Assembly: GCA_021151585.1 (NCBI GenBank)
Contig: JAGKWX010000002.1
Span: 75,747 to 139,746, forward strand
Length of the DNA: 64,000 bases
Direction: 5' to 3'
From: Alphaproteobacteria bacterium
GTDB taxonomy: Bacteria > Pseudomonadota > Gammaproteobacteria > JAGOUN01
In this document: piece after piece, positions 6,001 to 9,000 of the stretch
Position numbering within the stretch: position 1 is the stretch's first letter
How the letters are laid out: each line of letters begins with the position of its first letter
Position numbers: made by a program

Positions 6001-9000
6001 ACCCGTCATAAAATTAATTAGCAAAATATCATCTTCGCGCCCCATACTGCGACACATAGAGAAAATCTTTGCATACAGGGAATTATCACCTTTACCATCG
6101 ACATAAATAAAACCACTACCTTGCATTAACGCATTAAAAGCAAACGACACTAAAGCTTCTGTCTTACCGCTACCCGTTGATCCAAAAATCAACATATGTG
6201 TCCGCATATCATCGTTATTAAACCAAAGTTCATCGTTATTTGATTTGGAATTACCAAGAAAACAAATACCACGCGCCACATTAGGCTGCATGCCACCACC
6301 AGGTTTCATATCATTATAATCTAATGCTTTTGAACGAATTGGCATACGAAAAGGCAACGATGCACGTTTAGCCACATACAAACAGTAACAAGACAGAATA
6401 AAGCCGAGCAACAAGACGATGTCAGCAATAGCAGGAAATACACCAGCAAGCGTTGCAAGCACAATAAAAACAATAGAACTTTGTGAGGGCTGTTTTAAAA
6501 AATCCCTAATTTTCGTACCAAGCGTACGCGTATCCCGCAGGAGTTGCGATGCATCTTGTTCTTGATTTTTTTCTAACCCTCTAATCATTATCTCATCTCA
6601 TCTTCGTCGCGGTGGTAAGTAATTTCGGTCAATGCAGACTCTAACGCTAACGTGGCTGTTTCTACCATGGGCAACACTGATTTCCGACCTAATTCTTTTT
6701 CAGCCAACCAATGCGCAAAGACACCCGCCGATTCACAAACCGGTGTTCGACGACCAATACAATTCAAGACAAACCATGCTTTTCTATCGACCGGTTTCAA
6801 CCACAAAAAATCTGAACTACTCAATACGCCATCATAACGCGCCAATTCCAACATCGAGGCCATGACAGTCAGTTCATACGCATGAGACTCAATCACCATG
6901 TTCACGCTTTTTTTGTTAAGATATTTGCGACATAGTGCCAATGGATGTTCGCAATGAGTCGTATTTTTCACCGGATCAAAATTATTCGATAATTCTGCCA
7001 ACACGGCGTAAGCGAGATCGCGATCACCATGTGCTTTTGCAGCGAACACCCCAAATAAAGCCTGCAAATAAGGAGGCAGCGCTTCACAACCACGCCACAA
7101 TCTACCTAGCTGCAGAGTAAATAAGGCCATTGCCTTACCTTTATCTAATCTTGCGACTATACGTTTATGCCTTAATAATTCATCTTCGAGCGGCATAACC
7201 TCTTCTTCAATAATGAGTTGCTTTTGTTTAGCAAAATCCATTGGTGTCAATGACATCGCCCAGGGGCCTTTACGAATATCGACATTAATTAAATCAAGCG
7301 TTGTGACCGGTTTAATTTGCGGCCAGATATCTTGTTGTGCTGTTGCCAAATCTTTCATATTGTAAGAACGACGATAGCCAGTCGCAGAAGCACTTTTATA
7401 AATCATTATCGCTAACAACAACAAGATAACTATGCAAGGAATAGCAATATACTTACCCACACTAGATGCGATATATTGTGCCTGTACAAATGTCACGCTA
7501 ACAGGTGCAACAGTTGAAGCATAACGGTTAACTAAGTCTAGCTTAGAAGTAAATAAGCCTATAACGGACATTTCTAGGACTTTAAACTTCAAAAAGACCA
7601 GCATAATGTACGCATGCAAGAAATACCAAATAATGCCGCCAACAATGCACAGCGTCAACATGATCCATAAAGGACCGAGTGAATTATCCGGCTGTTGGCC
7701 GCCGCCGCCTCCTGGTGCCATAGAAACATCACTCTATTTATTCATCGTGGATTTATGGTGCCATAAATGAGGGGGAATTGACAATTATCTTTATTCCAAA
7801 CTCAGCGTTCCAAGGGGGCGACCATCGGATCGCCCGCTATTAACCTGAATTCAGACCTGATAACCTGCTATATTCGCTGAATTCAGTCAATTTAACATTA
7901 AATTATTGCCCGCCAGCCTGCTTTTGTCGCATTTCAGCCAACGTTTTACAATCAATACATAATGTCGCTGTAGGGCGCGCCTCTAAGCGTCGAATCCCAA
8001 TATCCACGCCACATTCTTCGCAATAACCATATTCGCCATCACGTAATCGTTTCAACGCCTCGTCAATATCAGCAACTAAATCTGCTTCACGATCTCGCGC
8101 TTTCAGTTCTAGGTTAAATTCTTCTTCTTGTGTCGCACGGTCATTCAAATCAGCAAAATGTTTAGGCTCATCCTTAAGGTGCGAGACAGCTGTGTCAATT
8201 TTAGACGATAAAGTGGCGCGCCATACGTGCAACAATTCTTTAAAATAGGCTTGCTGAGTCTCACTCATATAATCTTCTTCTGTAGAAATAATGTAAGGTT
8301 TCAAACCGAGCGACTCCGCATGCCCAACACTAGTTCGCGACTTGGTTGGCGCTGAAGCGAACGCATGCTCGGCCACAGCGTGAGCTGATGACTCTGCATC
8401 CGGTATCACTGAGCTTGTTTTTTCTGACGCTGTACCCTGAAACTCGCTAGACACAACAGAAATTGACTTAAGATTATCAGCATCTTGGTTAACAAAAGGT
8501 TTGGTTAATACTGTTTTTTTAGAAGACTTGCTACTGACTTTCTCTGGCGCGACTGTCGCACGAGATTGATCAGCCGTAGTAATCGACTTAGAGCTTGTTT
8601 TTGCTGAATTTTTAACCATATTTTCTGGCCCGGCGTTAGATACCGTCGATTGCACTAGCACTCTAGCTTTAGGAGACGCTGCCACAGCAGGTTTCGCCGT
8701 TTTTTTATCGCCTGCTTTTGTTATGACTTTGCTCGTTTTAACAACTGCTTTTGCTGTATTCGGCATAATGTATTCCTAAGGTAAAAAAGTTGGCACCCTC
8801 TATAGCAGACTTTTGCTATAAAAACAAATTCTATACGCATATATTTTATGCTAATATGATAAAAATAGCGATTTAGAGGAAGGAAACATGTTTAAAATAC
8901 GCGCTCAAGTCTTATGTTCATTGTTATTTTTGACCTCATCATTAGCTCTGGCCTCATCAGAGGAAGGCTTTTATCTCGGTGTTAACGCAATTGATGGTCA

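Follow-up and report, generated by a model that had tools for sequence, protein, structure and literature searches.

A housekeeping DksA with a long, predicted disordered N-terminal tail upstream of dotM in a Legionella-like bacterium

In Xanthomonas euvesicatoria, DksA was re-annotated from 147 to 256 aa to include a Lys/Ala-rich extension; the peptide AAPAAAKPAAKPVASK of this extension was seen by MS, the start was confirmed by start-codon mutagenesis, and with the native promoter driving the long DksA, a processed variant appeared together with the full-length form (PMC5559785). The DdbA protein of Streptomyces coelicolor (SCO2075), one of three DksA paralogues in that organism, co-localises with nucleoids and has an H1-like N-terminal half by which DNA is bound and condensed; its tail of 93 aa (pI 10.5) has BLAST similarity to the chlamydial Hc2 and was called specific to streptomycetes by its authors (PMC3643593). 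In the literature searched, we found no functional studies of such DksA tails beyond those on the Xanthomonas start site and on DdbA of Streptomyces, and no data on binding or localisation for the long DksA of any gammaproteobacterium. For the E. coli protein, the contacts of ppGpp site 2 in DksA are R91, L95, K98, R129, and K139 (PMC7676912).

The tailed architecture is already known, and the protein described here adds another member. Basic DksA tails of at least 60 aa were found in 41 of 80 related loci retrieved from GTDB species representatives, and all tails of this length in those loci are basic. The initial annotation of this DNA had singled out the tail; by this frequency and the published precedents (PMC5559785, PMC3643593) it is not unusual, and the comparison with homologues that it proposed recovered the same kind of extension in these 41 loci. 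The Rickettsiella tails are up to ~190-230 aa long, and their net charge is about +65 to +73. A bias in composition toward K/A/S/T/V/P, with no enrichment of aromatic residues or Cys, is common to all orthologues; the tails of most relatives are of the Lys/Ala and not the Ser/Thr kind, and the closest relative, P0002, has a Lys/Ala/Val-rich H1-like tail.

The gene and its DksA core

The gene lies at 7903..8766 on the minus strand of the window, by which we mean the whole 64-kb stretch of DNA that was analyzed. It has an ATG start and 287 codons followed by a TAA stop, was identified with DksA profiles, and is the only DksA-like gene in the window. Its codons 153-287 (7906..8310, minus strand) encode the core: a globular N-region, a coiled coil with a DxxDxA tip, a C4 zinc finger, and a C-terminal helix. 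Residues 171-241 match Pfam DksA_N (PF21157; E 6e-23, 81.2 bits against a cut-off of 27) and residues 244-277 match zf-dskA_traR (PF01258; E 2e-11, 44.2 bits against a cut-off of 24.9). The NCBIfam dksA model TIGR02420 is matched above its cut-off (150.5 bits, cut-off 115.5); with the enterobacterial equivalog model NF008045 the protein scores 169.8 bits, under the cut-off of 289.

Residues 12-151 of E. coli DksA align to the core without gaps (E 1.5e-46, offset +135); the window protein is 136 aa longer, and its conserved core is preceded by 152 residues. The tip residues D206, D209, and A211 (E. coli D71, D74, and A76) and the zinc-finger Cys residues 249, 252, 270, and 273 are invariant in 50 homologues. 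An AlphaFold2 model, built with an alignment of 50 sequences, gives the core a pLDDT of ~90, with helices at residues 169-199, 207-243, and 271-284. The top PDB matches of this predicted core in Foldseek were 1tjl_A, 5vsw_M, and 7khi_M; normalised to the target, their TM-scores were 0.84-0.89 (0.89 for 1tjl_A and 0.87 for 5vsw_M). That the C-terminal half is canonical DksA, as the initial annotation had it, is borne out by the profiles, the E. coli alignment, the tip residues, and the four Cys.

At ppGpp site 2, the equivalents R226, L230, R264, and K274 are kept, and the position of K98 is taken by Asp233 in the alignment to E. coli; the Asp at this position would touch ppGpp responsiveness, and not membership of DksA as defined by profiles and fold. 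Among the GTDB species representatives, the best match to the window protein (77%) is in Legionellales MAGs, and the exact protein is absent there; an identical protein (P0001) exists in the public collection. The window gene is the ordinary housekeeping DksA of an uncultured Legionella-like bacterium (Legionellales).

Open frame, composition, and possible roles of the tail

Codons 1-152 (8311..8766, minus strand) encode the N-terminal tail, which is Ser/Ala/Lys/Val/Thr-rich and predicted to be disordered. Its codon statistics are gene-like: GC3 is 0.36, compared with 0.35 in the long genes of the window, and the coding log-likelihood is +0.26 per codon (gene mean 0.325, sd 0.11), with frame 0 the best of six. 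When the tail DNA was shuffled by mononucleotides 200,000 times, only 25 of the shuffles were free of stops, and the analytical chance of 152 codons staying open is 1.1e-4. The initial annotation had held an open extension of this length to be improbable by chance, which these estimates confirm, and the codon-usage and third-position GC comparison that it suggested likewise came out on the side of a coding extension. The frame is open in three orthologues (tails of 152, 128, and 115 aa) despite saturated synonymous sites and many in-frame indels; short-tailed clade members retain the same N-terminal motif, and a basic N-terminus of at least ~35 aa is kept in every clade member. The tail is selected to stay open, and the long ORF is, as judged from its sequence, a true gene with a tail that appears to be translated from the first ATG at 8766.

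Among the 152 tail residues are 26 S, 23 A, 19 K, 17 V, and 15 T, with the peptides KTSKVITKAGDKKTAKPAVAASPKA and VAEHAFAS both found in the window protein. The whole tail has a net charge of +10, a pI of 9.95, 14.5% K+R, and 27% S+T; as the mark of a strongly basic, Lys/Ala-rich tail of the H1/HC2 type we took a pI above ~10.5 and K+R of at least 20-25%. The charge is unevenly distributed: residues 1-40 have a pI of 10.8 (K/R 9/40), and the last third, residues 96-152, is acidic with a pI of 5.4. AlphaFold2 gives the tail a pLDDT of ~50 (about 47-59 over residues 1-150), with no helix or strand through residue 147 and, where it joins the core, one helix of five residues (148-152), so that the tail is predicted to be intrinsically disordered and of low complexity.

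The window tail is the least basic among all long DksA tails examined, and the window protein has no match to Pfam PF07382 (HC2) at E<=0.01; this family matches 6 of the 50 DksA homologues, with a best E of 2e-19. A sub-threshold match of the window protein to DUF7283 (21 bits against 27) was taken as a composition artefact. Of the initial description of the tail as histone H1/Hc1-like, the part that stands is the basic character of the N-terminus; since the whole tail is weakly basic, with an acidic last third and no HC2 match, the term fits only its first ~40 residues.

Conservation is also uneven along the tail. Codons 1-45 (8632..8766, minus strand) form a conserved basic N-terminal module (M..K.KAVVKT.K..TK...KK.AKP...KA.VLV), recognized by orthologue identity and low dN, which shares 22 of its 45 residues with the orthologue L001. 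The relative dN is 0.11 for the core and 0.37 for this module, and rises to ~1.1 over the remaining tail. Because synonymous sites are saturated (pS ~0.7, dS >1.4), dN/dS ratios of the tail are unreliable, and the relative dN values alone were used. Past the first ~45 residues, amino acids change almost at the rate of synonymous sites (pN 0.58 vs pS 0.77), and this near-synonymous rate fits a spacer with little sequence-specific function.

The explanation that we favor, with a probability of roughly 55% for the whole of it, is a single, housekeeping DksA with a disordered N-terminal appendage that most likely serves as a weak, non-specific polyanion tether. The core, the C-terminal 135 residues, would act like E. 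coli DksA, its coiled coil entering the RNA polymerase secondary channel so as to place the DxxDxA tip near the active site, with the globular zinc-finger domain resting on the beta-prime rim helices. The tail may have arisen by expansion of the short Lys/Ala-rich N-terminus common to clade members, and would tie the protein weakly and non-specifically to nucleoid DNA, possibly to RNA or polyphosphate. Binding would be done by the basic first ~95 residues (net +13), and the last ~57, which are neutral to acidic, would link them flexibly to the core. Tethered in this way, DksA would be enriched locally around RNA polymerase engaged in transcription and coupled to the state of the nucleoid, as has been shown for the DdbA tail in Streptomyces. 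Binding of DNA or another polyanion by the tail is an inference, as is any effect on transcription; in the window protein itself, DNA binding may be weak or lost, given the lowest basicity, the acidic last third, and the missing HC2 match.

It is possible, with a limited probability, that the translated tail is close to functionless: a decaying remnant of an H1-like, Lys/Ala/Val-rich tail such as that of P0002, now a neutral disordered spacer that persists as its removal is unrewarded and frameshifts in the tail would destroy the essential core. This would agree with the K+R fraction, the lowest of all long tails, with the lack of an HC2 match and the near-neutral amino-acid divergence past residue 45, and with tail lengths of 35-153 aa in proteins whose cores are 72-83% identical. 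No tandem repeat structure is left in the DNA either, as TRF, run on it in search of a repeat origin of the tail, reported nothing at a score of at least 30. What speaks against a neutral spacer is the conservation of the first ~45 residues (dN 0.37 against ~1.1), the composition bias retained in all orthologues, and the basic N-terminus of ~35 aa or more in every clade member.

A wider version of the tether explanation is more speculative, and we hold it doubtful: that housekeeping DksA proteins with long tails, in Legionellales, Rickettsiella, and further Gammaproteobacteria, are an unrecognised class of nucleoid-tethered secondary-channel factors. Like a parallel to DdbA, they would tie compaction of the nucleoid to the stringent or stationary-phase programme while cells differentiate into transmissive or resting forms. 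In the clade with dksA next to dotM, loss of Lys98 (Asp in the window protein) could mean partial independence of ppGpp, with the length and charge of the tail then as a tuning parameter.

The tail might instead be a regulatory handle, either a degron or processing substrate (e.g., for Lon/polyphosphate-dependent proteolysis) or a platform for Ser/Thr phosphorylation, which would set DksA levels or release a tail-less form. The processed variant beside full-length DksA in Xanthomonas (PMC5559785) points in this direction, as do the 27% Ser+Thr of the window tail and its predicted disorder, which would make it accessible to proteases. However, the alignment shows no conserved motif for cleavage and the tails of most relatives are Lys/Ala, not Ser/Thr, and we consider such a handle unlikely.

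Control elements, neighboring genes, and start sites

Upstream of the first ATG we found a Shine-Dalgarno sequence, AGGA, at 8774..8777 (minus strand; 7 nt 5' of the ATG), with AGGA, AGGAAG, or AAGG at the equivalent place in orthologues. Further upstream lies a sigma-70-like promoter at 8799..8827 (minus strand), consisting of TTGTTT (8822-8827), a 17-nt spacer, and TGc-TATAGA (8799-8807); a conserved discriminator that contains GCC comes next. The promoter columns are invariant in a six-way alignment and the same element occurs in the loci L084-L087; the transcript would start ~25-30 nt before the first ATG.

The gene stands directly upstream of dotM/dotL, as first annotated, and all three lie on the minus strand, which the initial annotation had left unstated. 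The dotM/icmP gene is at 6588..7721 (minus strand; NF033890 with 409 bits, cut-off 230, and PF23127), followed by dotL/icmO, encoding the type IV coupling ATPase, at 4195..6588 (minus strand; profile matches). A spacer of 181 nt (7722..7902, minus strand) separates dksA from dotM, ~100 nt longer than in most orthologues; the spacers of other clade members have 60-111 nt. It contains a GC-rich hairpin, GGGCGAUC-CGAU-GGUCGCCC (7813..7838, minus strand; about -17 kcal/mol), which is not followed by a U-run; a consensus scan of the spacer for terminators found none and did not call this hairpin. A TATGG-CA-CCATA element at 7754..7765 (minus strand), ~35-45 nt 5' of the dotM ATG, is present in 10 orthologous loci. 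This element can also be read as a mini-ORF, ATG GCA CCA TAA. Exact or near copies of it elsewhere in the window are not beyond chance, and Rfam gave no match at E<=1 in the two intergenic regions searched. The conservation of the element in 10 loci points to a separate control region for dotM.

On the other side, hemA-prfA-prmC (9591..12963, minus strand) are the ancestral upstream neighbors of dksA in Legionellales, with an outer-membrane beta-barrel gene (8888..9481, plus strand) between them and dksA in the window. The same block precedes dksA in one Rickettsiella locus (L015, with prfA-like and prmC ORFs), in the Legionellaceae loci L058, L063, and L081, and in the clade member L085, and prmC precedes dksA in other Rickettsiella and Aquirickettsiella loci. 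Downstream of the prmC-linked dksA of Rickettsiella and Legionellaceae, dot genes are absent. The order dksA-dotM-dotL-dotK is kept in 10 clade members, and the adjacency of dksA and dotM holds across clade tail lengths of 35-153 aa. The position next to dotM/dotL had been called suggestive for the tail; with an ancestral locus, an adjacency regardless of tail length, and a separate element upstream of dotM, it loses that meaning, and the adjacency looks like conserved clade synteny, an inherited gene order and not a functional link to the tail.

These data also bear on whether the tailed DksA could be dedicated to the Dot/Icm type IVB system as its regulator or accessory, co-transcribed with dotM/dotL in the slot that icmQ/icmR hold in Legionella. 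The conserved order in 10 clade members, the placement of the genes on one strand with no canonical terminator called in the spacer, and the finding that Berkiella, another genus of Legionellales, likewise lacks icmQ/icmR (PMC9803151) are in its favor. We nevertheless regard it as very unlikely: the gene scores above the cut-off of the equivalog model for housekeeping dksA, and a profile search found only DksA domains and no similarity to Icm/Dot families. Further, the ancestral prmC-linked locus is used too in lineages with no dot gene following, the adjacency is independent of tail length, and the spacer holds the conserved element of dotM and a strong hairpin.

An internal start was sought by scanning every in-frame ATG, GTG, and TTG with 20 nt upstream. 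The GTG at codon 131 lacks a Shine-Dalgarno site and lies within a stretch that is gapped in orthologues, and was rejected. The TTG at codon 155 is the sole internal candidate with an SD-like site (GGAG, 9 nt upstream); across 78 homologous loci the equivalent codon is mostly not start-capable (the codon before the conserved K/E-P-Y in long-tailed homologues being ATA, TTC, ATC, GTA, and others), and this start was rejected as well. The same codon check ruled out a dual-isoform model, in which conserved internal initiation would give a tail-less DksA. The initial annotation had named an internal start near VAEHAFAS, with non-conserved DNA upstream, as the finding that would overturn a real extension; instead, promoter, SD, ATG, and ~45 residues are conserved. 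That the extension is untranslated and its open frame accidental, with a start at TTG-155 or GTG-131, is therefore exceedingly improbable: TTG-155 does have GGAG at a fitting distance, but position 155 is not start-capable in most homologues, a start there would delete the equivalents of E. coli residues 1-19, the first ATG is favored by codon bias and the open frame as well as by the conservation of N-terminus and promoter/SD, and the upstream start is experimentally proven in Xanthomonas.

Significance and comparison with known systems

For annotation, the consequence is that the long ORF should not be trimmed to a DksA of E. coli size. Long basic tails are present in about half of the DksA genes retrieved from related Gammaproteobacteria, and with so few functional studies the typical DksA of many lineages is barely described in the searched literature; these lineages include the genus Rickettsiella, with pathogens and symbionts of arthropods. 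Were DksA tethered to the nucleoid by these tails, models of secondary-channel competition and of stringent control would change there. The window protein, itself unsurprising, is a useful natural variant for tests of a tether, combining a weakly basic tail with an Asp at the Lys98 position.

Compared with E. coli DksA (1TJL; RNAP complexes 5VSW and 7KHI), the core is 52-56% identical over ~140 gapless residues, and the two are alike in the DxxDxA tip, the C4 zinc finger, and the equivalents of R91, L95, R129, and K139. The window protein differs in its 136 additional N-terminal residues, predicted to be disordered, and in having Asp at the positions of both K98 and K94.

The chlamydial Hc1/Hc2 and Pseudomonas AlgP resemble the longer DksA tails as Lys/Ala-rich disordered sequences of the polyanion-binding type. 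The basic content of the window tail is about half of theirs or less, with no PF07382 match, and, unlike the window DksA, Hc1/Hc2 and AlgP have no fused RNAP-binding domain.

The DksA proteins of Xanthomonas, Rickettsiella, and Aquirickettsiella (~320-360 aa in the latter two) share with the window protein a basic low-complexity extension joined to a housekeeping core. With a low-complexity extension of 152 aa (at least 60 aa in the definition) in frame with the core, the window protein belongs to the long-tailed gammaproteobacterial DksA, a kind also known from Chromatiales. The Xanthomonas and Rickettsiella tails have 23-49% K+R, whereas the window tail has 14.5%, is Ser/Thr-rich, and is acidic in its C-terminal third.

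Streptomyces DdbA, finally, provides the mechanistic model, with a tail that binds and condenses DNA and a core that acts on RNA polymerase, and its orthologues also vary in tail length. Unlike the window protein, DdbA is actinobacterial. As its tail is reported to be specific to streptomycetes, the gammaproteobacterial tails were most likely acquired independently of that of DdbA.

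The DksA core and its ppGpp-contact positions

The dksA ORF (7903..8766, minus strand) runs from an ATG through 287 codons to a TAA stop, and its C-terminal part is unambiguously DksA. Pfam places DksA_N at residues 171–241 and the DksA/TraR C4 zinc finger at residues 244–277, the protein scores 150.5 bits against the NCBIfam dksA equivalog model TIGR02420 (cut-off 115.5), and E. coli DksA residues 12–151 align gap-free to residues 147–286 (phmmer against PDB sequences, E 1.5e-46, offset +135). Compared with E. coli DksA, the protein is 136 residues longer, with 152 residues ahead of the conserved core. 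The coiled-coil tip residues D206, D209, and A211 (E. coli D71, D74, and A76) and all four zinc-finger cysteines are invariant among 50 homologues. An AlphaFold2 model based on this 50-sequence alignment gives the core a pLDDT of about 90, and its top Foldseek matches are E. coli DksA (1TJL) and the RNA polymerase (RNAP) complexes 5VSW and 7KHI, with target-normalized TM-scores of 0.84–0.89. The core holds every sequence and fold feature by which E. coli DksA binds the RNAP secondary channel, and presumably binds there too. The initial annotation of a DksA with a long tail rich in Lys, Ala, and Ser is borne out by the Pfam and TIGR02420 matches and by the tail composition.

ppGpp site 2 of E. 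coli DksA is contacted by R91, L95, K98, R129, and K139 (PMC7676912). The window protein keeps R226, L230, R264, and K274, equivalent to R91, L95, R129, and K139; the K98 position is occupied by Asp (D233; codon 233 at 8068–8070, minus strand), as is the position of K94. Lys is found at the K98 position in 81 of 82 scorable retrieved loci, and D, N, R, H, or T in 13 of 50 aligned homologues, all 13 belonging to the clade of Legionellales relatives with a dotM-adjacent dksA. The E. coli K98A variant retains RNAP binding, with ppGpp binding at site 2 abolished, and the Asp and other residues at this position may have altered the ppGpp dependence of DksA in the dotM-adjacent clade. No correlation was seen between the residue at this position and tail length.

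Translation of the N-terminal tail

Five independent lines of sequence evidence agree in indicating that the tail (residues 1–152) is truly translated. As had been proposed, the frame is open beyond chance: Mononucleotide shuffling of the 456-nt tail DNA left the frame stop-free in only 25 of 200,000 trials, and the analytical chance of 152 open codons at this composition is 1.1e-4. Codon usage and GC3 are gene-like, with a GC3 of 0.36 versus 0.35 across the 23 long ORFs of the window and, under the codon usage of the window, a per-codon log-likelihood of +0.26 in the annotated frame (other five frames, -0.004 to -1.18), which falls inside the gene distribution (mean 0.325, sd 0.11). The extension also stays open in the two closest long-tailed homologues, P0002 (locus L001, 263 aa) and P0003 (locus L003, 250 aa), whose tails of 128 and 115 residues have remained so despite saturated synonymous sites (pS ~0.7) and many in-frame indels. 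Ten orthologous loci share the sequence surrounding the first ATG. The N-terminal ~45 residues (M..K.KAVVKT.K..TK...KK.AKP...KA.VLV) are also conserved, 22 of these 45 being the same in L001, and short-tailed relatives (160–178 aa) begin with a similar motif; dN is 0.37 for these first residues, ~1.1 for the remaining tail, and 0.11 for the core. Upstream lies a conserved sigma-70-like promoter element (8790–8827, minus strand; TTGTTT, 17-nt spacer, TGc-TATAGA) with a conserved GCC-containing discriminator, next an AGGA-type Shine-Dalgarno site, and then the ATG; the predicted transcript start is only ~25–30 nt upstream of the first ATG. This arrangement would fit negative autoregulation by DksA/ppGpp, as for E. 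coli dksA.

An untranslated tail, with initiation inside the ORF, is the less likely reading. The initial annotation had named a GTG near VAEHAFAS as the start that would undo its claim, and this scenario fails: GTG codon 131 has no Shine-Dalgarno site and lies in a stretch missing from orthologues. A TTG at codon 155 (8302–8304), with GGAG 9 nt upstream, might act as a weak start and would then yield a 133-aa tail-less product; it is not conserved as start-capable. Across 78 homologous loci, this position usually holds ATA, TTC, ATC, TTT, or GTA, with ATG in L003 only, so there is no conserved internal start.

Genomic neighborhood and the dksA–dotM spacer

On the minus strand, hemA (11728..12963), prfA (10637..11728), and prmC (9591..10493) precede dksA, with an outer-membrane beta-barrel gene on the plus strand (8888..9481) between prmC and dksA. 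The genes dotM/icmP (6588..7721), dotL/icmO (4195..6588), and an OmpA-type lipoprotein gene in the dotK/icmN position (3494..4192) follow, all on the minus strand, and beyond them lie lipA and an aromatic amino-acid permease gene on the other strand. The hemA–prfA–prmC–dksA block also occurs in Legionellaceae genomes, and prfA–prmC–dksA in one inspected Rickettsiella genome, in both cases without a dot gene downstream; this shared prmC-linked block identifies the window locus, on gene order, as the ancestral, housekeeping dksA locus. It is the only DksA-like gene within the 64-kb window.

Only the clade to which the window belongs (core identity 72–83%) shows dksA next to dotM–dotL(–dotK); ten distinct loci have this order, and their tails measure 35, 35, 42, ~60, ~66, ~79, 115, ~117, 128, and 152 residues. 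Given this range, the adjacency is conserved yet independent of tail length; the suggested link between the tail and the secretion genes is thus unsupported, and a dedicated Dot/Icm role for the tailed DksA is less likely. In the window and one related locus (L084) the Dot/Icm genes adjoining dksA are only dotM–dotL–dotK, followed by lipA; in another (L085, 5706–10594) the cluster goes on with dotI/icmL and dotH/icmK. Neither icmQ nor icmR is present upstream of dotM in this clade, where dksA takes that position, and Berkiella has been reported to lack both genes (PMC9803151). Elsewhere in the window, two very large minus-strand ORFs (24114–27776, 1220 aa; 45275–51286, 2003 aa) have no Pfam match at E<=1e-4; as parts of a Legionellales genome with Dot/Icm genes, they are candidates for secreted effectors or surface proteins.

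The dksA–dotM spacer holds an inverted repeat, (TC)TATGG-CA-CCATAAT (7754–7765, minus strand), 35–45 nt upstream of the dotM start codon. Its TATGG-CA-CCATA element is kept in 10 of 10 loci (window, L001, L003–L006, and L084–L087), with no further copies in the window beyond chance, and also reads ATG GCA CCA TAA, a three-codon mini-ORF "MAP*" with the codons that open DotM (MAPGGGG). The element might serve as an operator, as part of a promoter, or as a uORF for the dotM–dotL operon. An extra ~100 nt (7805–7892), missing from most orthologues, contains a GC-rich hairpin (7813–7838, about -17 kcal/mol, without a U-tract) and two copies of the palindrome CTGAATTCAG (7845–7854 and 7877–7886), which has no other copies in the 64 kb (0.07 expected). 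Candidate readings of this extra sequence are a small inserted element, an attenuator, and a protein-binding site; neither intergenic region matches a known RNA family. Together, the shared element and the extra sequence argue for separate control of dotM.

Composition and putative role of the tail

The tail is rich in S (26), A (23), K (19), V (17), and T (15), with S+T 27%, K+R 14.5%, a net charge of +10, and a pI of 9.95. The charge is uneven: The pI is 10.8 for residues 1–40, 10.0 for 41–95, and 5.4 for 96–152. The model predicts an intrinsically disordered region, with a pLDDT of ~50, no secondary structure through residue 147, and a sole short helix (148–152) at the junction with the core. 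The earlier likening to histone H1 therefore holds for the first third of the tail and not for the rest, given the low K+R content, the acidic end, and the lack of a PF07382 (HC2) match in the window protein; six members of the 50-sequence alignment do match (best E 2e-19). A Pfam match to DUF7283 below threshold, spanning the tail end and core start (residues 102–182; 21 bits vs. a cut-off of 27, E 3.5e-4), is probably compositional.

Long tails are common among relatives. Of the 80 top-ranking loci in species-representative genomes, 41 carry a dksA whose product has at least 60 residues ahead of the core, all 41 with a K+R content of at least 20%, and the tail of the window protein is the least basic of the long tails sampled; that of P0002, the closest relative, has 23% K and a net charge of +27. 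Many 200–315-aa DksA homologues turned up in the protein search, several with HC2 matches, and long-tailed loci also came from Chromatiales, Ectothiorhodospiraceae, Thiohalophilus, Granulosicoccaceae, and unclassified Gammaproteobacteria. The arthropod-associated, Coxiellaceae-like Rickettsiella and Aquirickettsiella have a DksA far more extremely H1/protamine-like than the window's, with an Arg/Lys-rich N-terminal tail of 190–230 aa and a net charge of about +65 to +73 (L009–L023, L028, L041, L043, L045, L048, and L050); because a conserved MPVKRK marks its start, the longest-ORF starts used for these genomes over-extend by ~22 codons. We found no published study of these proteins, nor, in the searched literature, a functional study of a DksA tail in Gammaproteobacteria.

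The most likely role of the tail, by analogy to Streptomyces DdbA and to the strongly basic tails that relatives carry, is that of a weak, non-specific polyanion tether holding the protein to DNA, possibly also to RNA or polyphosphate: The basic first ~95 residues would bind and the acidic to neutral remainder would serve as a linker. That the tail in this lineage is instead a decaying, nearly neutral spacer is a serious alternative, if a rather unlikely one, favored by the low basic content and by the nearly neutral divergence past residue 45. A degron or processing role is less likely than either.

Experimental precedents for a tailed DksA come from two systems. In Xanthomonas euvesicatoria, MS peptides led to a re-annotation of dksA from 147 to 256 aa, the supplementary DksA peptide AAPAAAKPAAKPVASK is Lys/Ala-rich, and the start was confirmed by start-codon mutagenesis, with a processed form also seen (PMC5559785). 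In Streptomyces DdbA, a histone-H1-like N-terminal half of 93 aa is fused to a C-terminal half resembling DksA; in vitro, the tail binds DNA and condenses it, and the protein co-localizes with nucleoids (PMC3643593). With long-tailed housekeeping DksA known and these precedents at hand, the long-tailed DksA of the window is not unusual.
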